A stretch of DNA of 64,000 nucleotides. It comes from Octopus vulgaris. Taxonomy: Eukaryota. The position numbers and the translations under genes were made by a program. A model generated the notes under the pieces. It searched no databases. It saw nothing but the letters and a program-made list of their open reading frames with translations, and was not told the origin of the DNA. Location: assembly GCA_951406725.2 (NCBI GenBank), contig OX597820.1, positions 117,676,001 to 117,740,000 of the forward strand, in the 5' to 3' direction. The first letter of the stretch is position 1, and each line of letters starts with the position of its first letter. Shown piece after piece: positions 3,110-58,020 of the stretch.

Positions 3110-4075
3110 ATTATAAAAAGCACCAACTGATCGTAGCTGATGCCAGTGACCCCTGACTGGCTCTTGTGCTGGTGGCACGTAAAAAGCACTGTCCAAGCGT
3201 GGTCAATGCCAGGCCCACCTGACTGGCTCTTGTGCCAGTGACACATAAAAAGCACCAACTGATTAGTAGTCGATACCAGACCCACCTGACTGGCTCTTGT
3301 GCTGGTGGCACATAAAAAACACCAACTGATTAGTAGTCGATACCAGACCCACCTGACTGGCTCTTGTGCTGGTGGCACATAAAAAACACCAACTGATTAG
3401 TAGTCGATACCAGACCCACCTGACTGGCTCTTGTGCTGGTGGCACATAAAAAACACCAACTGATTAGTAGTCGATACCAGACCCACCTGACTGGCTCGTG
3501 TCAGTGGCATGTAAAAAGCACCGTCCGAATGTGGTCGATGCCAGATCTGCCTGACTGGCTCCTGTGCCGGTGGTGTGTAAAAAGCCCCACCCAAACATGG
3601 CCAATGCCAGTGCCTGGCACTTGTGTTGGTGGCACGTAAAAAGCACCATCCGAATGTGGTCGATGCCAGGTCTATCTGACTGGCTCTTGTGCTAGTGGCA
3701 CATAAAAAGCACCAACTGATCGTGGCCAATGCCAGTGACCCCCTGACTGGCTCTTGTGCCGGTGGCATGTAAAAAGCACTGTCCGAACATGATCGATGCC
3801 AGTGCCCCCCTGACTGGCTCTTGTGCCGGTGGCATGTAAAAAGCACTGTCCAAGCATGGTCAATGCCAGTGCCCCCTGACTGGCTCTTGTGCCGGTGGCA
3901 CGAAAAAGCACCCACTACTTTCAGAGTGGTTAGTGTTAGGAAGGGCATCCAGCTGTAGAAACTCTGCCAGATCAGATTGGAGGCTGGTGCAGCCATTGGC
4001 TCTCCTGACATCAGTCGAACAGTCCAACCCAAGCAAGCATGGAATACGGACATTAAACGATGCTGATGATGATGT
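3110..4075 (+). mobile_element. SINE/RTE-tail repeat with an internal ~60-bp tandem array
   Basis: About a dozen units of TGACTGGCTCTTGTGCYGGTGGCACRTAAAAAGCACC..., then the common tail GTTAGGAAGGGCATCCAGCTGTAGAAAC...CCAACCCA..GCATGGAA..GGACRTTAAACGATGATG. The tail recurs at ~4600, 9290, 15940, 27010, 33500 and 45480. Confidence 0.75.
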
Positions 4076-41799: not shown

Positions 41800-41900
41800 T
41801 GACATTAATTGTGTTAATTGTGTACAACGGTTGCTAACGACACTCTTCAGTTAAGAAGGCGCGCTTCAACATTTACCCAGAAACCAATTTGGTTCCTTTT
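41800..41900. promoter_or_regulatory. Bidirectional IQCG/RPL35A promoter with RFX X-box and TCT/TOP initiator
   Basis: GTTGCTAACGAC at 41830-41841 (reverse complement GTCGTTAGCAAC). Pyrimidine initiator TTCCTTTTCC at 41893-41902. Confidence 0.6.
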
Positions 41901-41919
41901 CCGGTTACCATTGAAAGTG
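41895..41919 (+). other. RPL35A: RPL35A non-coding exon 1 (5'TOP)
   Basis: CCTTTTCCGGTTACCATTGAAAGTG followed by the strong donor GTGAGT. Confidence 0.7.
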
Positions 41920-43655
41920 GTGAGTTGTATCTTTTACGTATGTCTCTTATTTTCCCTAATTATTCCCACTTTTAGGTACATATTTTAAATTAATTACAAT
42001 TGCACATTATTGTATGAACGTTCGACTGTATAATAATTACGATTTAAACCAAGGATGGGGTACAACAGTCTTGATTTAAATCGATATTTTCTATCATTAA
42101 CGTATAACACGCTGCCATCACAAATGATCAAATATGAATTTTTCTTCACTTCTTCGCTGATTCTCGTTTTCCCCTCTTGTTTTCCCAGATGCTTTATTCA
42201 TTAGTAATTATGTCCTATGCCATTACTTACTCCCCTATTATTTCAACAAATGCATGGAAATAATCTTATTTCTCGTCCACTTTGTGACCCCCCCCCTTGA
42301 TATTTAATTATCCTTTATATTTCATTATTATTATTATTATTATTAATTGTACCTCGTGGAAAACTATAATTTAATGTTGCTGTTTATGCAAAATATCACC
42401 AGAGGTAAGGATTCGAGGTGGTTTGTAAATTGGCGAATAATGAGAAATGGTCTTCCTCTCTTTTTTGCTGTCTCTGAAAATGTGTTTCTCTGCCATTCCT
42501 CATCTCCACCAGTTTATTAACTTCTTGGGTGGAATGTGTTAGGTTTAGGTTTTTAATGTACCTCTTCTGTTCAGATGTGGGGGATAAATAAATAAAGTAC
42601 CAGTTATGCACTGCAGTCCATGTAATCGACTTCACCCTTTCCTTACTGTATTTCTGTTGAGATGCTCTGTGTTTCTTTCAATTAATTTAAATATCACAAA
42701 GAATTTAGTAAAATAACTTAGTTATCATTCAGCTAGTGTTTGGAACATAAATTGTGACTAAGGTTTGGTGGAAGATTTTAATTCAGAACTTAGAAAACAA
42801 GACATTTATACTAAAGAGCCAGAGGTGGTATCAAAAGGGTTAAATTAATCATTTGTTAACCCTTTTGTTACCATATTCTTGTTGAGATTCTCTATTACTT
42901 TAAATATAACAAAGAATGTAGTAAAACAACTTAGTTATCATTCAGCTAGTGTTAGGAACAAATTGTGACTAAGGTTTGGTGGAAGATTTTAATTCAAAGC
43001 TTATGTTTAGCCCCTTGTGGGCAGTAAAGAAACATATGTTCAGATGTAGGGGATGTGTTTCATTGTAGAATAAAAATGGAAATCAACCTCGAACAGGAGA
43101 CGTACATTAAACACTAACATTCCATAAAAATTAGATTTTTGGATTGGTAATGTTCGCCGTCGACTTGTTTATATAAGCATGTGGAAGCGACATTATAGTT
43201 CTTCGACTCTCGATAGACAAACTGTTTTACCCCCATAAATAAGATACCACAATGTATTCCTGGCACGACACTCGATAAAAAAGGGACAAATTAAGAAGCA
43301 TATCCCATTGTTTCGGTCTGTCTGTCACGTCAAGTATATAACACGTGCAGTTTTATAGAGTGACTGGAAGGACATAGATTTTTTTTTTTAATGGGATACG
43401 GTCAAAAATGTATAAATTGAAAAATACTTGAGACTGATTCTAACGTTCCGAGCAAGGGATCCCTTCAGAGAAAGAAATGTCTAGTAGAACAGCTAACGAA
43501 ATTATATCTTATATTCAGAATTATTCAGAGACTTTTAATTACCTGCTGATTTCTCTCTAAGAGAAAGCTATCCTATATTTATTTGTTTTTTTACTTATAA
43601 TTACTGTTGTAAATAGATTTTGTTTTTAATCCCGTTTCCTTTCTCTTAGATTATC

Positions 43656-43729
43656 ATGTCGGAGGGTGAGGCAAAAGCAGCGCCAGCGGCCAAATCGAAA
43701 AAGAAGACCCCAAAACGAACACCTGGCAG
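43656..43729 (+). CDS. RPL35A: 60S ribosomal protein L35a (eL33), coding exon 1
   Basis: Acceptor tttctcttag ends at 43649, ATG at 43656. MSEGEAKAAPAAKSKKKTPKRTPG-R, donor ag|gtaata, phase 2. Confidence 0.85.
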
Positions 43730-44736
43730 GTAATATTTTTTTATGCATAATCCATGTGCTCATCACTTTATCAATATTTACAATGTTAAGTGGGATTCTT
43801 TTGTTTTCTGTTTCGATGTATCATTGAAGCGAATGAAAAGTTGCAAGACGAAATTAAACAGTCCAAACGGGATGTATTTAGTTTCTGTATAGCGATGCGA
43901 TTGTATACTTTTACTTGTTTCAGTCATTTGACTGTGGCCATGCTGGAGCACCGCCTTTAGCCGTGCAACTCGACTTATTCTATCGATCTCTTTTGCCGAA
44001 CTGCTAAGTGACGGGGACATAGACACACCAGCATCGGTTGTCAAGTAATGCTAGGGGGACAAACAGACATACACGCACACACATATGTACGACGGGCTTC
44101 TTTCAGTTTCCGTCTACCAAATCCACTCTCAAGGCTTTGGTCGGCCCGAGGCTATAGCAGAAGACACTTGCCCAAGATGCCACGCAGTGGGACTGAACCT
44201 GGAACCATGTGGTTGGTAAACAAGCTACTTACCACACAGCCACTCCTGTATATGTATTATTTCTGGAAATTTTACCTTGTAAGCGAACATGAACGGAAGG
44301 GTGAGGATTAGGCGGTGCACAGGGTTTTTATAATTTTAGTAAATAACAGTTGAACATAGGACAAATAAAGCTGTTTGCATATTGCTAAAATTCTTGCATT
44401 CTGATCAGATAAAACATTTGCATCATTATTTTAGCTGCTGGTCATTTGTGTTTTGCTGTGGCCAATATTCTTAAAACGAGATCCTTGGAGTCTTGTTCTG
44501 TTATTATTATTCACCCATAACAGAATTTAGGTTTTTTGGCTTAACTCACCAAATTAAAGTTTTGTCAATTAGGTACACTCTCATTAGACTGGGAGTCAGA
44601 TTTCTATGTTCCCATAGCAACAATTTTAAACTAAGCTTTGAAGACTACGTGATGTTAGTATATTCAAGAAAATCATGTATGAAATGATGCACATGGCTGC
44701 CCAATAGCCCTCAGACCACACCTTGCTGTTGTATAT

Positions 44737-44860
44737 AGGTACTTGTATCGCAGGCGTAGGCAGTCGATCCTACGAGCTGACTGGCGCGTACACGATATAT
44801 ACTTGTATGGCACGGACGCGTGTGTGCGCGAACCGGGACCACTCTGCGATACAAGTACCT
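44737..44860. mobile_element. Small MITE related to the 40123 element
   Basis: TIR AGGTACTTGTATCGCAG/CTGCGATACAAGTACCT. Shares subterminal ACCGGGACCACTCT with ~40275-40288. Confidence 0.65.
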
Positions 44861-45899
44861 TGTATATGTGTATATATATATATATATCCATCGGTTTGAC
44901 TATGCTAGGAGGCTGCACCAGACTCCAATCTGATCTGGCAGTGTTTCTAAAGCTGGGTGCTTTTTGCATGCCACTGGCACAGGAGCAAGTCAGGGTGAGA
45001 GGGCAGGCAGCGACCACATTCAGATGGTGCTTATTGCATGCCACCAGCATGGGGGCCAGTCAGGCGACACTGGCATCTGTCACTACAATTTCCGTTTTGA
45101 TTGTGAATTGATATTATTTTAATGCTGATGTACTTGAGCAAAGCATGTCGCCCAATGATCCAAAGGTACTTTTTTTTAAGTGGGCTGGTTATGTGACATT
45201 GGTGTAGGCTACAATTGATCTCACTTTACTTGCTGGGTCTTCTCAGTCACAGCATATCTCCAGGGTTCTCAGTCTTTCGTCATTTCTTCTGTGGGGCCCA
45301 ACATACAAAGGTCATGCTTCACCACCTCATCCCATACCTTAGATCTCTCTCTACCACAGGTTCTTTCCACTGATTGGCAGTGATACGTCTTCACACAGCT
45401 CTCTTCATCCATCTGTAGTACATGACCATACCAGTGCAGTTGTTTCTCATGCACATCACATCTGATGCTTCTTATCATCATCATCATCGTTTAACGTCCG
45501 CTTTCCATGCTAGCATGGGTTGGACGGTTCAACTGGGGTCTGGCAAGCCCGAAGGCTGCACCAGACCAGTCAGATCTGGCAGTGTTTCTACAGCTGGATG
45601 CCCTTCCTAACGCCAACCACTCCGAGAGTGTAGTGGGTGATTTTATGTGCCACCGACACAGGTGGCAGACGGCCACGCTCGGATGGTGTTTTCTTATGTG
45701 CCACCGACACAGGTGCCAGACGAGGCTGGAGAACGGCCACAATCGGATGGTGTTTGTTACGTGCCCACAGCACGGAGGCTAGTTGATGCGGTACTGGCTA
45801 CGGTCCCGTTCGGATGGTTTTCTTATGTGCCACCGGCACTGGTACCACAAGGATACAAATTCCATTGATGTTCATCTATTTTGGTTTGATTTGATTTTC

Positions 45900-47248
45900 A
45901 AGATTTCTCTCAGGTCGCTTACACTCTGTCGTGTGTGCACACTGACATCACACATCATGCTAGCTTCATGTCCCAATCCATGCGGTCTTTTCCCGTTATA
46001 CTTTTTATCTGTGTAAACATCGAAGTTTACACGGTATCCTGTCTCCAATTCACAAACTTCCCATTCCTTGATCCCCATTTAGTAGGTTTAGCAGGCATGT
46101 ACTGCTAAAGATGTACTCTGCCCTTATAGCCTATCATGGTTTCATCTACACTGAGATTTTTCCCAGGTAAATAAATAGTTTTATAATTCTGTACGAGTAA
46201 ATCAATTACAGGACGTACTTTGTGCAGGGGATCGTAGTTTGGGTCGTTTTTGCTGGGGGCATTGGCAGAATCAGTTAAATGCAAATACTGAGATATTTTC
46301 AAATACCTTGTCTGTATGGTTCGATCCCGCACTTAATTCAGTCTCCAATCAAATTCACAGTGTTTTGATTGGTATATTATGAGTGCTACAGCATTATTGA
46401 CTTAATTAAATGCAGCTTTTCTAATAAACGCTGTTATAATTAAATTCAGACAATTTTCTCATTTTGTGAGGTGGTGTACCTGCTTCAATACTTCATTAGA
46501 AAGTTGTCTGTTGGGCTTCGTGGGGCGGGGTTGGATGCTCGAAATATATGGATCGCCATACCTTACATCGGGTCTCCAATAGTTCCACATTCGAGGAAGC
46601 TGTTTAACTCCAAGCATAATTTTAATTGCGAAAAATGCTCTCATTTCTGCAGTATTAGTTGGCTGCCATAGCGGATCGTTTCTTCCTCGGACAGAAATTA
46701 AGTGTTGCGCATATTTGTTCATTTCCTCTGCAACATTTTCAAAAGAACTTTCAGGCAAAAATAAAAATAGATAGTCCAGTGGTTGAGCAACAGGAGGTAA
46801 ATTATGGCGAGGACCAGTGTTTTCTGTAAAATCAGAAATTGTGACTGGTGTCGTAATTTTCGACCATGTTGCCTTGTTTACAATATCGTTTTCATCAGTT
46901 TCGTTATGGAAATCTTCGTCCGACGAGTAATCACTGATATCAATATCAGGTTCATCCAAAGTCAAAATGCTTTCCTTTTCGTTGATATCTTCAAAGTCGG
47001 AATCGATACTTGCTGACGCCATTTCTTTCACAACAAACATATACACATGTGGTCTAAACAATTTCACAGTATTTATGCTTGAATAAAGGCGGGAAAGGCT
47101 CCCTCCATCTTGCATTTTCTCAAAGCTACGAGAATTTAATGTGACTTATTTTTTTTTGTGATTTCATAGAGCTGTCTGATACAGCCGGTTTGAACAAGTA
47201 AAGGGGAATTAATTTTAGCCAGTTACGGCCGGTTTGAACACTAAAGGG
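45900..47248 (-). mobile_element. piggyBac (PGBD4-like) transposon fossil
   Basis: EMRAFFAIKIMLGV, YLHLTD..DPLHKVRPVID..LSVDETMIGYKGR, YMPAKPTK.GIK. End CCCTTTAGTGTTCAAACCGG at 47248. Interrupted at 46311-46534. Confidence 0.88.
46329..46455 (+). ncRNA. Box H/ACA snoRNA-like gene, copy A1 (RPL35A intron 2)
   Basis: Hairpin 1 GCACTTA..CCAATCAAA/TTTGATTGG..TGAGTGC, H box ACAGCA (46388-46393), hairpin 2 TGACTTAATT..GCAGC/GCTGT..AATTAAATTCA, ACA at 46450-46452. Sense to the host gene. Confidence 0.7.
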
Positions 47249-47413
47249 TGAAACGACAATGATGTCTGCTGTGGAAGCAATTCAGTAAGGACCGGCAGGT
47301 AAAAGGATTATCATAGATGGAACTACCAATGTGAAATGTTTTTTAGGCTTTAATGTTAGTTGTGTCAACATTAATTTAGTCAGAAGTTATATTGTTGTTG
47401 TTATCTATTTCAG

Positions 47414-47566
47414 ACTCTATGTTAAAGCTGTGTTCACAGGCTACAAACGTGGTTTAAGAAACCAGTATGAGCACACTGCACTCTTGAAGATTGATGGTGT
47501 TTATAAAAGAAATGAAACTAGTTTTTACCTTGGCAAAAAATGTGCTTATGTATACAAGGCAAAGAG
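47414..47566 (+). CDS. RPL35A: RPL35A coding exon 2
   Basis: tttcag|...|gtgagc, 153 nt. [50 protein letters not shown]. Confidence 0.97.
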
Positions 47567-47884
47567 GTGAGCTTTATCTTTTTTTCTTTTAAAAAACGAC
47601 AGGTGGGGGTGTTTATGTAACACTGTATTGGCCCCCACATACTGCTCCCAATGCACTTCCAACCCATTTCTTTTACGTCTGGATCCCCCTACATCGTCGT
47701 GGAGGCCCCTTACAAAGTGGTGCTTTCTGCTCATGCATGCCGCTCGGCAACTGCACAAGTCCACCTGATGTTTGTGGAGCTTGTACTTTTGGTATTCTGC
47801 ATTCCCTACTCTCCACCCTCAAATTAACGCATTTTAAATATGCTCAGAAGAACTCGCTGTAAGGTCTCTGTATGGTTCGATCCC

Positions 47885-48011
47885 GCACTTAATTCAGTCT
47901 CCAATCAAATTCACAGTGTTTTGATTGGTATATTATGAGTGCTACAGCATTATTGGCTTAATTAAATGCAGCTTTTCTAATAAACGCTGTTAGAATTAAA
48001 TTCAGACAATT
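47885..48011 (+). ncRNA. Box H/ACA snoRNA-like gene, copy A2 (RPL35A intron 3)
   Basis: Near-identical to A1 (two substitutions seen); same hairpin-H-hairpin-ACA layout. Confidence 0.72.
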
Positions 48012-50332
48012 TTCTCATTTTGTGAGGTGGTGTACCTGCTTCAATACTTCATTAGAAAGTTGTTTGCTGGGCTTCGTGGGGTGGGGTTGGCTGCCCCACA
48101 ATATAGAAGCTTCAGTGACCTTCATCCTAAAGCGTGACTTTAAGATAATTAACATACGACAACTGGTGATTTGGTTTCTAAATCTCTGGTGAGAACCATT
48201 GGGTGTGGTTGAGTTCTTAAGGACCTGAATTGCTATCATCATCATTTAATGTCTGTTCTTCCTGGCACGGGTTGGATGGTTTGAAAGGAACTGTACCAGG
48301 CTTCATTTGTCTGTTCTGGTGTGAGTTCTACAGCTGGATGCCCTTCCTAATGCCAACCACTTTACAGTGTGTGTGTTGGGTGCTTTTTACATGGCACCAT
48401 TACCAACATCATCATCAAAGCAAAATCTCTCAACTCGGAAATGGGTGGCTTTGTATCAGTTGAGAGATTAAGTGTATAGAGGTGTTGGGACGGGTATCTT
48501 GCTGTAGGGTGGATGCATTGATAGACCAGTTAGAAGGGAAGGGACTAGTGAGAGAGATGGTAGATTGGGAGAGGTAACTCAAGAAGCTGCTGGGTGGTGC
48601 AGTGTCTATAAATCTCCGGATTTTTGGAGAAGGTTCAGATTTTGATGAAATGCAGTTAATTTTACATGCTGTATCATCATCATCATACATTTACTGCATG
48701 AGTTTTTGATGTTCTTTAGGAATCTGTTTTGTCGCTTTCACCTGCCCAGGTGTGTTGTTGAATATCGAAGCTTGTAGGTGTTTTCACTTACATTTTCAGG
48801 ATCTCAATCTCCGTCTTGGGTTTCTTGCCTGGAAGTTGCACACTTGGCATCAGGAAAATCATTCCAAGATATGCCTTCAGTTCCTCCAGGTGTTTTGTAT
48901 TGTCCAGCATATATGTGCTTTTATCGTTTACTTGTTGCACCCATCAGGTTACGGTCATGCTGGTGCACTGTGTTATAGAATTTTTGTTGGTCTCTTGTAC
49001 AAAGCCACTGTGTTACATTCTCTTTCCATCTACCAAATCCACTCACTCGGTGCACTCTGTGAGTCAGAATGTGGTTGGGAGACGAGCTTCTTGTCTCACA
49101 CCCATCCCTGCCCCTATTTCTGCAGAAATGTTTGTTTTTTCCCCCCTCTCTATCCTCATGGAAGCATCATCATTAACTATATGGATGCTCCACCCCAAGA
49201 AGTCCTGGTATCATTCACACTGAAATACCATTCTAAGTGTTTCCTTGAAAACCAAGCTCTCTTTCTATAAAAGTGACTGGTTTTGTATTTTGGCACAAGG
49301 CCGCCAATTTTATGGACGCTGTTCCTTATCTTGTTGACCATGGCGGAATTTGAACTCAGATTGGAGACGGTTAGCATGCCACTAAACGTCCTCACCAGCT
49401 TCTGAACCAGCCACATGCAAGATTGAAGGGGAATAAAAAAGAAAGATTTTTGGTAAGCGGTTCCCATGTCAGCCACATGGTTGAAAGATCAATTGCACAG
49501 CATGATAGATGGTTAAATATCTTCTATTATGGCATTGGGCCAACCAATAGCTTTGAGGTTGGGTTTTGATGAGAGGAAAGGAAAGAAGGCTCTCACATGT
49601 GTGTGTCTGTCTCTGATCCTGTAGCGTAGTGGTTTCTTAAAAGAGGTCAACTGAATATGAACCCAGGTCAATTTCTTTGACTAAAAGAAAGATGAAGCGT
49701 AGATTCTACAAGCTGGGAGTCTTGTAAAGTTTGGCTGGGCTCACCTGGACCGCCCTTTTCGTACTGCATTGATATGTGGTTCCTTATTGTAGAGGTCTTA
49801 GAGGATTAAGTTGCTGGTGGCAATGGCCACTGCCTGGCCCTCGTCCCGCACTCCTCAAAGCCCTAAAACTCCTATACCAGGGCCTCACCACCAGGTCCAG
49901 TTTCAGGTCTTTCCCAGGACCCTCCATACCTCAACAGCAAATTACAGCTGCAGCGTCTGCACTATCGAATGCAGTTGCTCTCCCAGTGGGGCATTTGTCA
50001 AATCTTCAGGATGGATTTTTGGGCCACAAGCTGAAGTATGACTTTGGCTGCTGGAATGGACAGGAATTCACCAGTCCCACTCTCCCCTTGTGAGTGCCAC
50101 TGAAAGTACTGCAAAGGACTATTTTCTGAGGAACACTTCCACAGTCGGTTATAAATATGCCTGAGACAAACAAATAAATGAAGTATTATGCTGCTCCTTA
50201 TAGTGTTTACCTGTTCGTCAGCTAATTATGAATTAACCAGATTTCGTTGTCTCTCAATTGATAACTTGTAATCAAGAGTTCAATTCCACTTTTTGTCTTT
50301 GTGTGTCTCTTGTACCCCGAAAGGATTACCAT

Positions 50333-50462
50333 GCACTTAAACAGGCCTACAATCAAAGGGTCACTGTTTTGGTTGATGGAATAATAAGTGCCACAGAAAA
50401 TTGGAATCTTTATATAATGCAATCATCCAAGTGGTGCCTGTCGCATAAAATTCCAGACAAAT
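50333..50462 (+). ncRNA. Box H/ACA snoRNA-like gene, copy B1
   Basis: GCACTTA-pocket-CAATCAAAG/TTTTGGTTG-pocket-TAAGTGC, H box ACAGAA, hairpin 2 TGGAAT..ATTCCA, ACA at 50457-50459. Confidence 0.65.
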
Positions 50463-52439
50463 TTTTAAGTGTAATTTTTTTTTTTTTTTTAACACCCTTC
50501 CATGGTTGTTTTGGGTGCACTGTTTGCCTGTGTGGTGAGGACAATCACCACCGTTTGACATCTGGTGTTGGTGTATGTATGTAGCTTAGAAGTTCAGAAA
50601 GGCCAACTGATGGAATAGGCATCAGGTTCAAAAACCAGTAATTACAGGGTTTGCTTCGTTCAATTAAAATTCTGTGTTTGTTCTGATAATTAAATATCAA
50701 GCATCGTTTTACTAAAATGTCAAGAGCAAGAACTCTGGAGCTTTGGAGAAGGTTAAGATTTTGGTGAAATGCAGTTAATTTGGCATGCTGTATCATCATC
50801 ATACATTTACTGCATGAGGTTTTGTTGTTCTTTAGGAATTTGCATTGTCAGTTTCACCTGCCCAGGTGTGCTGTTGAATATCGAAGCTTGTAGGTGTTTT
50901 CACTTACATTTTCAGGATCTCAATCTCTGGCTTGGGTTTCTTGTCTGGAAGCTGCATACCTGACATCAGGAAAGTCATTCCAAGATATGCCTTCAGTTCC
51001 TCCAGGTGTTTTGTATTGTCTGCCATGTATGTGCTTTTATCGTTTACTTGTTGCACCCATCAGGTTACGGTCATGCTGGTGCAGTGTGTTATAGAATTTT
51101 TATTGGTCTCTTGTGCAGAGTCACTAGGTTACATTCTTTATCCATCTACCAAGTGCACTCGGTGAGACGGAATATGGTTGAGAGACAAGCTTCTCATCTC
51201 ACACCCATCCCTGCCCCTATTTCTGCAGAAATGTTGGTTTTTTTCCCCCCTCTATCCTCATAGAAGCATCATCATCAACTGCGTGGATGCTCCGCCCCTA
51301 AGAAGTCCTGGTGTCATTCACACTGAAATATCATTCTAATTGTTTCCTTCAAAACCAAGCTCTTTGCTCTCTTTCTATAAAAGTTGCTGGTTTCGTATTT
51401 TGGCACAAGGCCGGCAATTTTGGGGAAGCTGTTCCTTATCTTGTTGACCTTGGCGGAATTTGAACTCAGATTGGAGACAGTTAGCATGCCACTAAACGTC
51501 CTCACCAGCTTCTGAACCAGCCACATACAAGATTGAAGGGGAATAAATGAGAAAGATTTTTGGTAAGAGGTTTCCTTGCCAGCCACATGGTTGCAAGATC
51601 ATTCGCACGGCATGACAGATTGGTTAAATATCTTCTATTATGGCATTGGGCCAACCAAAAGCTTTGAGGTTGGGTTTTAAAGCGAGGAAAGGAAAGAAGG
51701 CTGTGTGTGTGTCTCTGATCCCGTAGCGCAGTGGTTTCATAAAAGGGGTCAACTGAATATGAACCCAGGTCAATTTCTTTGACTAAAAGAAACAAAGATT
51801 CTACAGGCTGGAAGTCTTGTAAAGTTTGGCTGGGCTCACCTGGGCTGCCCTTTTCGTACTGCGTTGATATGTGGCTCCTTATTGTAGAGGTCTTAAAGGA
51901 TTAAGTTGTTGGTGGCAATGGCGCCTGCCTGGCATTCATTGTCCCGCACTCCTCAAAGCCCTAAAACTCTTATACCAGGGCCTCACCACCAGGTCCAGTT
52001 TCAGGTCTTTCCCAGGACCCTCCATACCTCAACAGCAAATTACAGCTGCAGCGTCTGCACTATCGGATGAAGTTGCTCTCCCAGTGCGGCATTGGTCAAA
52101 TCTTCAGACCGGGTTTTTGGGCCACAAGCTGAAGTATGACTTTGGCTGCTGGAATGGACAGGAATTCATCAGTCGGAACCAGCCCCCACCCTCCCTTTGT
52201 GAGTGCCACTGAAAGTATAGCAAAGGACCATTTTCTGAGGAACACTTCCACAGTCGGTTATAAATATGCCTGAGACAAACAAATAAATGAAGTATTATGC
52301 TGCTCCTTATGGTGTTTACCTGTTCGTCAGCTAATTATGAATTAACCAGATTTCGTTGTCTCTCAATTGATGACTTGTAATCAAGAGTTCAATTCCACTT
52401 TTTGTCTTTGTGTCTCTTGTACCCCGAAAGGATTACCAT

Positions 52440-52569
52440 GCACTTAAACAGGCCTACAATCAAAGGGTCACTGTTTTGGTTGATGGAATAATAAGTGCCA
52501 CAGAAAATTGGAATCTTTATATAATGCAATCATCCAAGTGGTGCCTGTTGCATAAAATTCCTGACAAAT
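52440..52569 (+). ncRNA. Box H/ACA snoRNA-like gene, copy B2
   Basis: Near-identical to B1; ACA at 52564-52566. Confidence 0.62.
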
Positions 52570-55003
52570 TTTTTAGTGTAATTTTTTTTTTTTTTTAACA
52601 CCCTTCCATGATTGTTGTAGGTGCAAGGTTTGCCTGTGTGGTGAGGACAATCACCACCGTTTGACATCTGGTGTTGGTGTATGTATGTAGCTTAGAAGTT
52701 CAGAAAGGCCAACTGATGGAATAGGCATCAGGTTCAAAAACCAGTAATTACAGGGTTTGCTTCGTTCAATTAAAATTCTGTGTTTGTTCTGATAATTAAA
52801 TATCAAGCATCGTTTTACTAAAATGTCAAGAGCAAGAACTCTGGAGCTTTGGAGAAGGTTAAGATTTTGGTGAAATGCAGTTAATTTGGCATGCTGTATC
52901 ATCATCATCATACATTTACTGCATGAGGTTTTGTTGTTCTTTAGGAATTTGCATTGTCAGTTTCACCTGCCCAGGTGTGCTGTCGAATATCGAAGCTTGT
53001 AGGTGTTTTCACTTACATTTTCAGGATCTCAATCTCTGGCTTGGGTTTCTTGTCTGGAAGCTGCACACCTGGCATCAGGAGAATCATTCCAAGATATGCC
53101 TTCAGTTCCTCCAGGTGTTTTGTATTGTCCAGCATATATGTGCATTTATCGTTTACTTGTTGCACCCATCAGGTTACGGTCATGCTGGTGCACTGTGTTA
53201 TGGAATATTTTTTGGTCTCCTGTGCAAATCCACTGTGTTACATTCTCTTTCCATCTACCAAATCCACTCGCATGGTGCACTCTGTCAGTCAGAATGTGGA
53301 ACAATGTGGTTGAGAAACGAGCTTCTTGTCTCACACCCATCCCTGCCCCTATTTCTACAGAAATGCTTGTTTTTTTTTCCCCCTCTCTATACTCATGGAA
53401 GCATCATCATCAACTGCCTGGATGCTCCGCCCCCGAGAAGTCCTAGTGTCATTTATACTGAAATGCCATTTTAAATGTTTCCTTGAAAACCATGCTCTCT
53501 TTCTATAAAAGTTACTGGTTTCCGATTTTGGCACAAGGCCGGCAATTTTGGGGAGGTTGGTCCTTGTTTTGTTGACCATGGCAGAATTTGAGCTCAGAAC
53601 GAAGAGACATTTAAGATGCCACTAAACGTCCACACCAGCTTCTGAACCAGCCACGCGTAAGATTGAAGGGTAATAAAAAAGAAAGATTCTTGATAAGAGG
53701 TTTCCATGTCAGCCACATGGTTGCAAGATCATTCGCACTGCATGACTGATTGGTTAAATACCATTAGAAAGGGTATCAGGCTGTAGGAGCTTTACCCAAT
53801 CAGATTGGAGCCTGGTGCAGTCAAACCATCCAACCCATGCCAGCATGGAAAGTGGACGTCTACGGATGATGACGATGTAGCAGTAGCCCAGTTTACAAGA
53901 TCATCAATTAGCATCCGCTTTCCATGCTGGCATGGGTTGGATGGCTTGCCTGGAACTGGTAAGCTGGAGAGCTGCACCTGGCTCCAGTCTGAATTTGGCT
54001 TGGTTTGTGTCACTATCATGGAAGCATCGTTTTCCAGTTATGTGGTCTTGGGTTCAGTCCCACAGCAGACCACCTTTTGTTGTAGTCCTCTGTTTAGAAA
54101 AACTTTGGCAGTGGATTTCGTAGGTGGAAAGTGAAGTGTTTGTGTGTGTGTGCAGAGCCTGGTCTTGAGAGGTTTTTGTTGTACATAAGCAATGTTGTTG
54201 TTTGTCTGTGGTGTTCCATGTAAAACATTGTCTGGTCCTTAGAAAATATTGCTTCCGTAAATTCCATCTCACACATGCAGGTACGGAAAAAGTGGACTTT
54301 AGATCGGTTGGGGGTTGGGCTTTGTCAGTTTTCTAATTGATGATATATCTTAGTTGTCATTCAGCACAGGTGGAGAGTTCGTGTTCAGGGTTCCACGTGT
54401 ATATACGCTGCACTTTAGGTCAATCCAGCAGTTGGGGAACTGGAACTCTGTTGGGTGTTGCTTCTGGGAACAATATTGGCTAAGTTGTCCAGCACTCCTC
54501 AAAGCCCTAAAACTCCTATACCAGGGCCTCACCACCAGGTCCAGTTTCAGGTCTTTCCCAGGACACTCCATACCTCAACAGCAGATTACAGCTGCAGCGT
54601 CTGCACTATCGGATGCAGTTGCTCTCCCAGTTGGGCATTTGTCAAATCTTCAGACCGGGTTTTTGGGCCACAAGCTGAAGTATGACTTTGGCTGCTGGAA
54701 TGGACAGGAATTCATCAGTCGGAACCAGCCCCCACCCTCCCCTTGTGAGTGCCACTGAAAGTACTGCAAAGTTATTTAGTAGCAAAGGACCATTTTCTGG
54801 GGAACACTTCCACAGTCGGTTATAAATATGCCTGAGACAAACAAATAAATGAAGTATTACGCTGCTCCTTATGGTGTTTCCCTGTTCGTCAGCTAATTAT
54901 AAATTAACCAGATTTCGTTGTCTCTCAATTGATAACTTGTAATCAAGAGTTCAATTCTACTTTTTGTCTTTGTGTGTCTCTTGTACCCTGAAAGGATTAC
55001 CAT

Positions 55004-55131
55004 GCACTATTCATATGCTCAATCAAAGGGACACTGTTTTGGTTGATGGGGGGGTAGTGCCACAGAAAATTGGAATTTTTCTATAATGCAATCATCTAAG
55101 TGGTGCCTGTCGCATAAAATTCCAGACAAAT
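55004..55131 (+). ncRNA. Box H/ACA snoRNA-like gene, copy B3 (different pocket)
   Basis: Lower stem GCACTATTC/GGGTAGTGC, same upper stem, H box ACAGAA, ACA at 55126-55128. Confidence 0.65.
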
Positions 55132-55526
55132 TTTAAGTGTAAATGATTTTTTTTTTTTTTTAACACCCTTCCATGATTGTTTTGGGTGCACTGTTTGCCT
55201 GTGTGGTGAGGACAATCACCACCATTTGACATCTGGTGTTGGTGTATGTATGTAGCTTAGAAGTTCAGAAAGGCCAACTGATGGAATAGGCATCAGGTTC
55301 AAAAACCAGTAATTACAGGGTTTGCTTCATTCAATTAAAATTCTGTGTTTGTGCTGATAATTAAATATCAAACGTTGTTTTACTAAAGTGTCAAGAGCAG
55401 GAACTCTGGAGCTTCCGGGTGAGTGTCTGGTCAATGCAAATGTGATTTGTTGTTCAGAGTGTTCCTTCTGCAAAGTATAATCTACGAATATGTTTTGTTT
55501 ATTATTTGTAAATATTTTCATTGTAG

Positions 55527-55674
55527 GAAAACAAGAATTCCAGGCACCAAAACTGCAGGTCACATTCGTATAATATGGGGCAAAGTCACCCGTCCCCATG
55601 GAAATAGTGGTGCTGTACGTGCGAAATTTAAGAAGAATCTACCTGCTACCGCTATTGGAAGACGCATCCGAGTT
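55527..55674 (+). CDS. RPL35A: RPL35A coding exon 3
   Basis: ttgtag|...|gtaagt. [49 protein letters not shown]. Confidence 0.97.
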
Positions 55675-56763
55675 GTAAGTGAAGAATGTTTTATATGTTG
55701 CTATTCTTGGCATTAGTTGATTTGGAGATGCTTGAAAGAGGAGCAGGTTCTGAAATTTTGGTGGGGGCTGAACAAGATGTGTACAAAGATTATTGAGAGT
55801 TAGGCGTAGGAGCGGCTGTGTGGTAAGTAGTTTGCTTACGAACCACATGGTTCCGGGTTCAGTCCCACTGCGTGGCATCTTGGGCAAGTGTCTTCTGCTA
55901 TAGCCCCGGGCTGACCAATGCCTTGTGAGTGGATTTGGTAGACGGAAACTGAAAGAAGCCTGTCGTGTATATGTATATATATATGTGTGTGTGCGTGTTT
56001 GTCCCCCTAGCATTGCTTGACAACCGGTACTGCTATGTTTATGTCCCCGTCACTTAGCGGTTTGGCAAAAGAGACCAATAGAATGAGTACTGGGCTTGCA
56101 AAGAATAAGTCCCAGGGTCGTTTTGCTCGACTAAAGGCGGTGCTCCAGCATGGCCGCAGTCATGACTGAAACAAGTGAGAGAGAGAGAGAGTTCCTGAGT
56201 TTAGCATGAAGGGTCGGTCCTCAGCCCTGTCCCTCATCAGTCCAATGTGCCATCACAGTGGAGTTAAACACTGGATGTGTGAGGGGAAGTATATATCAAT
56301 TGTTTGGGAGTGACACTACTTCACACGTCTCTCCTCATCCATCCGTATTACATGACCATGCCTGCGTGAACGTCTCTCTAGCACGCCACATTCTTTATGT
56401 CCAGCATTTAATGGATAGGTGATGGCCAGTTTAAATGCTATGGGGTTACAGGTTCTGTCTGGTTCCTAGTAACAACCATTCATTAATGCACTCAAATAGA
56501 AATTGTAGTAGTGGACGATGCCCATGCCACTTGACTGGCTCCCTGTGCTGGCGGCACATAAAAAACACCATCCGAACGTAGTTGATACCATCATGGAAAA
56601 AATGGGTGTTAAACATTTGTGTGGTCCTAAAAGTTAATAGGGCCCACTTGACATTCTTGTGTTTGATTTGTCCCCTCTCACAGTCACCATGTAATTATTA
56701 CCCATAAGTAAAATATTTTCTTTGGGATGTTTCAATTTGTTCTTTTTTTTTTGTTTCTTTCAG

Positions 56764-56787
56764 ATGTTGTATCCATCAAGAATCTAA
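56764..56787 (+). CDS. RPL35A: RPL35A last coding exon (MLYPSRI*)
   Basis: tttcag|ATGTTGTATCCATCAAGAATCTAA; AATAAA at 56799-56804. Total CDS 399 nt. Confidence 0.95.
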   Translation: MLYPSRI

Positions 56788-57059
56788 AGACATGTAAAAA
56801 TAAAATGTTTTCCAATCTATCTCTTCTTTTCTTGTTTCTTCTTGGCACTAAAATGCCTGTGATGAAAGCAGGTATCCCAGGTTTCTGGTTTTCTTCATCT
56901 TTATTTCATCAAAAATAAAAGTCCTGATTTGTTTGGGGCTGATAATCACATCTTTTATCCATCTCAGTGCCGGTATTGCTGCCGGTCTCTCTCTTCCATT
57001 TAGTGTCCCTCATCATTATCATGATAGTTTTCTGTAACAGAACCATTGTTTGGTTTTCT

Positions 57060-58020
57060 GCAGGTTGATATGAAAAGCATAAAGTCCAACTTAATGGTTC
57101 GCTGTCCGACGTCTCCAGTGCGAGCAGTGGTGTGCTTGGGCCCTTATTGTTCTTAGGCTTCGTAAATGACTTGCCCGACGACCTCGTGCAACAGACCCTT
57201 CTATTTGCCGATGATGTCAAACTGGTCTCTCCTCACGGTGATGTAGATGTTCTTCATCGATGCCTCCACCAAGTTTGGAGATGGTTTAACGAATGGGACC
57301 AGTGTCTGAACATGTCAAAGTGCTGTCGGCTCTACTCCTGCAACTCCACTTGATTTCGAGTCGGGTCATCTGCTGCTAGAGAGGACCGACCAGGTAAAGG
57401 ACCTGAGTATCTTCGTGGATTCTTCCTTTTCGCCTTTGGCCCAGTGCGTCCATGCTGCCAACAAACCACATGGAGTTCTGTTTCAGATTCAACGGTCTTT
57501 CGGAATGCTAACAGCAGCCATATTCCTACCGCTCTGTCCCGCTGGTGAGACCCCATATTGGAGTGCGGGATTCAAGCCTCTTCTCCTTATCTCCTCAAAG
57601 ACATCTGGCTACCTGCATGGTTCTTGGTCTCAAGCATTTGTCTTACAAAGAAAGGCTGAAGGCACTCGACCTTTATTCTCTAGAAAAACGACAACGCCGT
57701 GGTGATCTCATTGTTGCTCACAACATCACAACCGGAGAGTGTGACCTCCCGAAATAGCTGTTCTTCACTCCTGCTCCAGAGCGTCGGCTGCGGGGTCACT
57801 CTGAAAAGCTCTATGTGCGACGATTTCATCTCAATCGAAGGAGAGGTGCTTTCTCTGTCCGGGTTGCGGATCCGTGGAATAAGCTGCCGGTAGAGATGGT
57901 GAAGATGCCGACAACTGCTCGGTTCAAAGTCTCTTGACCCGAAATGGCATGAACACCACCCTGTACGTAACTGCATGTCACCCTACATGGCCTTGCTTCT
58001 TGAGCCAAGATATTAAATTA
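57060..58020 (+). mobile_element. CR1/L2-like LINE 3' RT fragment
   Basis: VLGPLLFLGFVNDLP..LLFADDVKL; LSYKERLKALDLYSLEKRQRRGDLI. Confidence 0.85.

Follow-up and report, generated by a model that had tools for sequence, protein, structure and literature searches.

Divergence concentrated in the guide pockets of a duplicated family of likely box H/ACA RNAs in the RPL35A introns of Octopus vulgaris

What becomes of the guide sequences of a small nucleolar RNA (snoRNA) when its copies multiply within the introns of a single host gene? The question is raised by the RPL35A locus of Octopus vulgaris, which we analysed in a stretch of 64,000 nucleotides (nt), hereafter the window (assembly GCA_951406725.2, contig OX597820.1, positions 117,676,001 to 117,740,000 of the forward strand; positions below are numbered from its first letter). 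Five elements resembling box H/ACA RNAs lie here in the sense orientation of RPL35A, namely A1 in intron 2 and A2, B1, B2 and B3 in intron 3 (Table 1). H/ACA RNAs are released from introns, are bound by dyskerin, NOP10, NHP2 and GAR1, and modify a uridine that is set by two pocket strands at 14–16 nt from the box. It is in these pockets that the B copies have diverged: between B1 and B3, 13 of 24 pocket positions differ, against 4 of 107 in the remaining scaffold and 45 of 622 in the flanking intron DNA (Fisher p = 1e-8 and 8e-9, respectively), the pockets outrunning the flanks about eightfold.

The anatomy of the elements suggests that they are likely box H/ACA guides, two-hairpin RNAs with H and ACA boxes. 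A search with the scaffold pattern on both strands of the window returned exactly five matches, all on the plus strand and at the starts given in Table 1. In these five and in a sixth copy on contig C1 of this genome, a box H of the form ANANNA immediately follows hairpin 1 (ACAGCA in A1/A2, ACAGAA in B1–B3), an ACA follows hairpin 2, and two hairpins are obtained as the minimum free energy or centroid structure. With the mature 3' end predicted at three nt beyond the ACA, the lengths are 127 nt for A1 and A2, 130 nt for B1 and B2 and 128 nt for B3. The distance from the upper stem to box H is 15 nt in A (counting an extra C-G pair), 17 nt in B1/B2 and 16 nt in B3; if the stem is run over an ATG, it becomes 14 nt in B1/B2 and 13 nt in B3. 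The top of the pocket is expected at 14–16 nt; A lies in this range and B approximately so, and the C1 copy has 18 nt. Folding z-scores of the sense strand are -2.76, -2.53, -1.18, -1.13 and -1.81 for A1, A2, B1, B2 and B3, and those of the three antisense strands tested are -1.45, -0.31 and +0.13; a minus-strand reading of the elements, which folds worse, was rejected. The hairpin-1 stems are 98.8% paired, with no two-sided (covarying) change in the MAFFT alignment. H/ACA RNAs specific to Cajal bodies (scaRNAs) carry a CAB box, UGAG, in the terminal loop; none was found in the hairpin-1 loops of the six copies, nor, by eye, in the folded hairpin-2 loops. Rfam at gathering score detected U6 alone and no H/ACA family in the whole window, and at E up to 10 gave nine weak matches in 44000–57000 with no H/ACA family among them. 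The elements thus belong to no curated Rfam snoRNA family (snR49, SNORA29, SNORA31 or others) at the gathering threshold.

A preliminary description, made from the letters of the window, had proposed five H/ACA elements with these positions, strand, boxes and lengths, an upper-stem distance of about 15–17 nt, three versions of the hairpin-1 pocket on a fixed scaffold, and four copies sharing one intron. The pattern search, the spacing, the two-hairpin folds, the alignment of the copies and the structure of RPL35A intron 3 bear out all of these. It had also proposed folding and an Rfam comparison, of which the former gave two hairpins in all copies and the latter no family match.

The B copies are passengers of tandem intron duplications of 0.9–3 kb with 90–92% identity. 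The stretch 48614–51630 is 90.2% identical to 50733–53760, and the partial unit with B3 is, pockets included, 92.3% identical to the B2 unit and 91.6% to the B1 unit. Together with the duplicated block around the A copies, these repeats support the local amplification of the family that had been surmised. A2 differs from A1 at two positions and B2 from B1 at two, all within hairpin 2, and neither pair shows any pocket change. A and B have in common their hairpin-1 stems, their box H and their 3' end, whereas no alignment is obtained between their flanks; this points to selection having acted on the scaffold for a long time. We also noted, at 50595–50625 and again at 52701 and 55266, a short downstream hairpin region that resembles the two B1 pocket strands set next to each other and has 10 nt in common with the B1 3' strand; the 150-nt stretch around it is near-invariant among the three tandem units.

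Several observations delimit the change to the pocket strands themselves. The 33 bases upstream differ at one position between B1 and B3, the lengths of the pocket strands are kept at 11–12 and 10–12 nt despite indels, and every copy covered has its boxes and core stems preserved. Among the B copies a single position differs in the 26-nt upper hairpin that separates the pocket strands, although A and B vary there without constraint, which speaks against reading the pockets as no more than an old island shielded from conversion. Variation is also seen in the 5' loop strand of hairpin 2 (55081–55088), where copies and organisms differ at five of nine positions (55081, 55083, 55084, 55086 and 55088); the terminal loops do not share it, and this strand is a possible second variable pocket.

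The same pattern recurs between related organisms, which strengthens the claim of the preliminary description that pockets are swapped on a fixed scaffold. Contigs from other organisms (organisms B, C and D; 4 of 24 runs, one of which yielded no contig there) were compared over B3 only. In organism C, the B3-type contig departs from B3 at three of 189 nt, and each of these changes falls in the 5' pocket strand (3 of 21 pocket positions against 0 of 168 in the rest). Organism B has the same three changes plus one that is not itemised, and since the two organisms share them, they were counted once and not as independent. The B1-type contigs of both organisms show one pocket change relative to B1. 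In organism D, two contigs of the tandem type add two more pocket versions, which differ from B3 at 7 of 21 pocket positions against 6 of 155 in the rest and at 15 of 21 against 6 of 164 (one difference not itemised). The pocket of the C1 copy, for its part, is unchanged in all three organisms (one row of organism B not itemised). When each changed strand is counted once, 8 of 10 have changed where 2.8 are expected (p ~0.0005), with background rates roughly estimated and comparisons that share lineages.

We searched for the sites at which the pockets are aimed in this genome's 18S, 5.8S and 28S ribosomal RNA (rRNA) and in its small nuclear RNAs (snRNAs) U1, U2, U4, U5, U6 and U12. Three scorings agree on 18S U380/U381 as the best site of the A pocket. 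Pairing at U380 comprises 8 base pairs (bp; seven Watson-Crick and one G-U) in the 5' arm and, in the 3' arm, 3 bp and one further bp beyond a mismatch, with a distance of 15 nt to box H; the alternative register at U381 gives 7+5 bp. Natural guide-target pairs have at least 8 bp, with as few as 3 on one side, and 14–16 nt to the box (PMC6800473; papers are given by PubMed Central identifier and cited from extracts of their text), and 8 bp is also given as the minimum elsewhere (PMC9122591). Among the 1529 uridines of 18S, A ranks U380 second and the C1 copy ranks it sixth, pairing there with 6 + 9 of 10 pairs but at 17 nt from box H. All 11 full 18S copies of the genome agree throughout the target stretch, and rRNA variants were rejected on this ground as a driver of pocket change. 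A1 and A2 are predicted to guide pseudouridylation of 18S U380/U381 and, given their canonical pairing, are probably not orphan guides. Thus, a search of rRNA with the A motif, which the preliminary description had suggested, found its match in this genome's 18S; its suspicion that the pockets are orphans falls for A and stands for B1, B2 and B3, for which no target held up.

U380 corresponds to position 210 of the Rfam 18S model. We assume that position 211 of yeast and frog and position 222 of human fall on this motif, and take human position 218 to match model position 206. The U-x-U-x-U spacing, at model positions 206, 208 and 210 and human positions 218, 220 and 222, fits this numbering, and U380 is likely the site of the yeast and frog 18S pseudouridine 211. 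The latter, which is the unmodified U222 of human, has been detected in two frogs, zebrafish and yeast (PMC6984369, in extract), and its yeast guide is snR49 (PMC5699541). In the octopus genome 18S has 2643 nt and 28S 4890 nt against Rfam models of 1831 and 3401, with G+C-rich expansions, and many 18S fragments are dispersed.

The tandem-type pockets retain what may be a trace of the same site. With U380 named in advance from the A pocket, the 5' strands of B1, B3 and the two organism-D pockets jointly rank it first of 1529 (sixth if two invariant positions are left out), the strands of the other organisms being read by hand from a difference table with three rows not shown. This joint rank suggests that the whole family probably began as a guide for 18S U380. 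Single tandem-type 5' strands reach up to 8.5 and 7 of 10 at U380, including positions unpaired in A, and the 3' arms of all tandem-type pockets break there after 2 bp.

The account that we tentatively favour is that one U380 guide gave rise by duplication to the five likely H/ACA guides, that A keeps the site, and that the B pockets were likely re-aimed by selection. The RNAs would be released from the spliced RPL35A introns and bound by dyskerin, NOP10, NHP2 and GAR1; A1 and A2 would still direct pseudouridine at 18S U380, and the tandem B copies would have lost pairing with it in one of the two arms. As A would cover the old site, the tandem copies would be free to change, new pockets being kept while duplication or conversion maintains the likeness of their scaffolds and flanks. 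Selection would then re-aim these spare copies at substrates that most likely lie outside rRNA and the tested snRNAs, for example mRNA or repeat-derived RNA. We infer the expression of the RNAs, the ancestral target, the activity of A, selection as the cause and the new substrates.

A number of observations weigh against this account, among them the search for new targets. The pockets of B1, B3, C1 and four from other organisms were scored for contiguous pairing: in mature rRNA and snRNA 20–97 of 100 shuffles did equally well, and in spacers and host exons 12–98 of 100. None of the B targets held up across scorings in 18S, 28S, 5.8S, U1, U2, U4, U5, U6, U12, spacers or host exons, the set that was scanned. 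In human cells snoRNAs can guide the modification of mRNA, though with low efficiency (PMC9122591, in extract). The A match alone is borderline, as null sets score as well in 9 of 60, 3 of 40 and 6 of 100 cases, and its register is ambiguous between U380 and U381. B1 and B3 by themselves place U380 only 81st, or 718th once the invariant positions are left out; the joint B score was equalled at some site in every one of 100 column-shuffled sets; and the joint rank depends on strands from other organisms, six and five groupings having been tried. As for the pockets, clustered changes may be single complex mutations (the three of organism C fall within 8 nt), orthology is assumed for the organism-D contigs, and the pocket borders, though they follow the stems, were set with the variation already in view. 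Finally, the scaffold difference of 3.7% between B1 and B3 is not clearly below the 7.2% of the flanks (with indels), and the folding z-scores of the B copies are weak.

Under an energy score, few or no shuffles were as good as the best sites of C1 (28S U4045, 0 of 40), B1 (1 of 40), B3 and organism-D contig 10 (2 of 40 each). These sites have 3-bp arms, mismatches or many G-U pairs and lie mostly in G+C-rich stretches; they failed under two other scores and were not accepted. The best pocket score in U6 and U12 was 9 points (no null run), and the hairpin-2 pockets gave no convincing site under energy scoring, likewise with no null run. Computed snoRNA targets often fail when tested (PMC8522698, in extract). 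We noted two sense identities to rRNA: the 5' pocket strand of organism-D contig 9 (window 55009–55019) shares 11 nt with 28S 3509–3519 (0 of 500 shuffles), and B3 (55011–55019) shares 9 nt with 18S 24–32 (16 of 500). An origin of pockets as sense copies of rRNA is not general, and these two among 16 strands are probably due to chance. Of the earlier claim that the family was re-targeted at least twice, the loss of pairing with U380 is seen and a new target that held up is not, so that re-targeting of the B copies is something we infer. A bolder form of the account, in which an array of expressed H/ACA RNAs has its pockets under recurrent positive selection and, from one sister species to another, turned towards rapidly evolving RNAs (mRNA, transposon or viral transcripts) and away from the 18S site, strikes us as doubtful.

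Among the alternatives, one retains the family origin and the role of A and makes the B pockets functionless, a hot spot of complex mutation in hairpin-forming tandem DNA with selection only on stems and boxes, or on nothing; this we regard as rather unlikely. It accords with the failure of any new target for the B pockets to hold up, with the clustering of the pocket changes and the indels among them, and with the variability of the hairpin-2 5' loop strand across the set. Complex changes in genes for RNA hairpins have been reported to arise by template switching (PMC8794818, in extract), which would predict reverse-complement donors. However, in 0 of 64 pairs was a strand the reverse complement of the opposite strand at p <= 0.05, and nearby DNA held no clear reverse-complement donor (lowest 13 of 300 among 48 tests), so a template-switch origin is not supported. 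Some 230 nt downstream of the 3' strand of B1, 10 nt of it do recur (6 of 300 shuffles within the 930-nt unit), but this is not significant gene-wide (122 of 300), and the other strands have no counterpart. A hot spot also sits poorly with the preserved pocket length, with the near-constancy of the likewise unpaired terminal loops, and with the C1 copy, whose scaffold is the same and whose pocket is unchanged in three organisms; about one change is expected there, so this last point is weak.

A second alternative takes the copies for old paralogues with stable, distinct targets, in which conversion homogenises scaffold and flanks and species have kept different subsets. The array is indeed tandem with units 90–92% similar, organisms B and C carry pockets of both the B1 and the B3 type, with states of hairpin 2 that do not keep to one type, and conversion shapes the SNORD115/116 arrays, one subfamily of which has 11 substitutions in its antisense element (PMC12429941, in extract). 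Stable pockets are nevertheless hard to square with three changes in the B3-type and one in the B1-type pocket of organisms B and C, or with the two further versions in organism D; beside the pockets there is no dip in identity (1 of 33 upstream bases, B1 vs B3), and no conserved target was found. We consider this improbable.

Still less probable is that A alone, perhaps with C1, is a real RNA and that the B copies are dead passengers of intron duplication with a pocket pattern due to chance. The B copies do sit in repeat-rich duplicated blocks, have weak folding z-scores and no assigned function, and B2 has a change in the lower stem of hairpin 2. Neutral decay, however, predicts one or two changes in 24 pocket positions where 13 are seen, the pocket excess recurs in other organisms, and boxes and core stems survive in every copy covered; neutral decay cannot yield pocket-limited divergence. 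That the elements are fragments of a transposon or other dispersed repeat resembling an H/ACA RNA, as a repeat-rich RPL35A intron and the one dispersed copy on C1 with no identified host gene might suggest, is very improbable and largely refuted by the total of six copies (a lower bound) in DNA and pattern searches.

These genome searches also largely dispel the worry of the preliminary description about a dispersed high-copy element. DNA searches found four B-type and two A-type copies (four matches for B1 at E up to 1, four for B3 at E up to 10, two for A1). A stem-pattern search of the 2.8-Gb genome gave seven matches, the six copies and one on contig C3 that has no lower stem, fails the family model and was rejected. 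The counts are lower bounds, as the searches score the best candidates only and remote members may escape. The sixth copy, with a fourth pocket version, forms a 174-nt insertion that includes about 35 upstream bases and is therefore not a copy of the mature RNA alone; as to its host, 28 of 73 reading frames in one scanned 9.9-kb stretch gave no Pfam match above cut-off. Beyond this genome, 61 metagenome pattern matches included none below E 0.37 by the family model. Just 5' of both A copies and within the duplicated block, at 46318–46327 and 47874–47883, stands GGTTCGATCC, which to our eye resembles a tRNA B-box; at the matching place the B copies have a small GAAA-loop hairpin.

Other features of the window include a U6 snRNA copy at 824–930 on the minus strand (96 bits), which has several substitutions relative to the best genomic U6 copies and is probably a pseudogene. 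Directly after the A1 block, at 46540–47252, an acidic reading frame on the minus strand and an end resembling a terminal repeat have the look of a piggyBac-type remnant; 46720–47022 had no Pfam match. A long inverted repeat at 53818–53952 with a weak MIR7724 match (E 7e-4, far under gathering) is likely a repeat element, and a degenerate reverse-transcriptase-like stretch was seen by eye at 57060–57940, just downstream of RPL35A.

Table 1. Positions in the window of the H/ACA-like elements, of the repeats that carry them and of the RPL35A exons
Feature	Position	Strand	Pocket strands	Box H	ACA	Basis or remark
A1, H/ACA-like RNA, RPL35A intron 2	46329–46455	+	46334–46344, 46373–46381	46388–46393	46450–46452	Pattern search, fold
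A2, copy of A1, RPL35A intron 3	47885–48011	+		47944–47949	48006–48008	
B1, H/ACA-like RNA, RPL35A intron 3	50333–50462	+	50338–50349, 50376–50386	50393–50398	50457–50459	Pattern search, fold
B2, copy of B1, RPL35A intron 3	52440–52569	+		52500–52505	52564–52566	
B3, B1 scaffold with other pocket, RPL35A intron 3	55004–55131	+	55009–55019, 55046–55055	55062–55067	55126–55128	Pattern search, fold
228-nt duplicated block with A1	46311–46538	+				Partner 47867–48094, 97% identical
Tandem duplication with B1 and B2	48614–53760	+				Period ~2.1 kb
930-nt partial repeat unit with B3	54485–55414	+				
RPL35A exon 1	41895–41919					Short, non-coding; starts with a pyrimidine tract, which we take to be as in 5' terminal oligopyrimidine (5'-TOP) genes
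RPL35A exon 2	43650–43729	+				Start codon (ATG 43656); read from sequence
RPL35A exon 3	47414–47566	+				Pfam Ribosomal_L35Ae PF01247, E 8e-21
RPL35A exon 4	55527–55674	+				Pfam Ribosomal_L35Ae PF01247, E 1e-17
RPL35A last coding exon, through stop codon	56764–56787	+				Read from sequence

Compared with known systems, the elements resemble the intron-encoded box H/ACA snoRNAs of animals in their two hairpins, ANANNA hinge, ACA after hairpin 2 and predicted length of 127–131 nt, as well as in their sense placement in ribosomal-protein gene introns and a pocket 15–17 nt above box H. In this respect the A part of the locus is ordinary: a predicted further guide of the H/ACA class for an 18S position already described, and several snoRNAs in one intron. 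It likely shares its 18S position with snR49 and Xenopus pug18S-211 (PMC5699541, PMC6984369), by a mapping of the numbering that is partly assumed; there is no sequence family match to them, and pug18S-211 is described as frog-restricted with Taf1d as host (PMC6984369). The likeness is functional only, and a separate origin is likely.

The duplication of snoRNAs in cis, with copies in neighbouring introns of one host, is described (PMC2653536), as are an occasional gain or loss of guide function (PMC2653536, PMC6984369) and, in Drosophila, several H/ACA RNAs clustered within introns (PMC3089462). Unlike these, the present copies ride kilobase tandem duplications of intron DNA, which serve as a neutral clock. 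The paralogues described usually keep their guide regions while the rest varies, to go by the extract of PMC2653536, and the B copies reverse this. What they display is a repeated, pocket-limited acceleration. SNORD115 and SNORD116 are imprinted box C/D RNAs that number in the dozens, each copy in a separate intron of a non-coding host. They are alike in being tandem arrays with gene conversion and one more variable antisense element (PMC12429941, PMC4063771), which those extracts read as drift over mammalian time and not as outpacing adjacent intron DNA. In the open-access literature, outside which most subscription papers lie, we found no report of cephalopod H/ACA RNAs, nor of H/ACA pockets that change faster than neutral. 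For variable pockets of orphan guides, junk and re-aimed guides have been posed as two readings (PMC6984369, in extract). At the RPL35A locus a likely ancestral target comes together with a copy predicted to be still aimed at it, with young tandem copies that depart from it and with the neutral clock of intron DNA, and the locus thereby bears on how snoRNAs gain targets; were the pockets a mutational hot spot, this too would describe a route to new guides.

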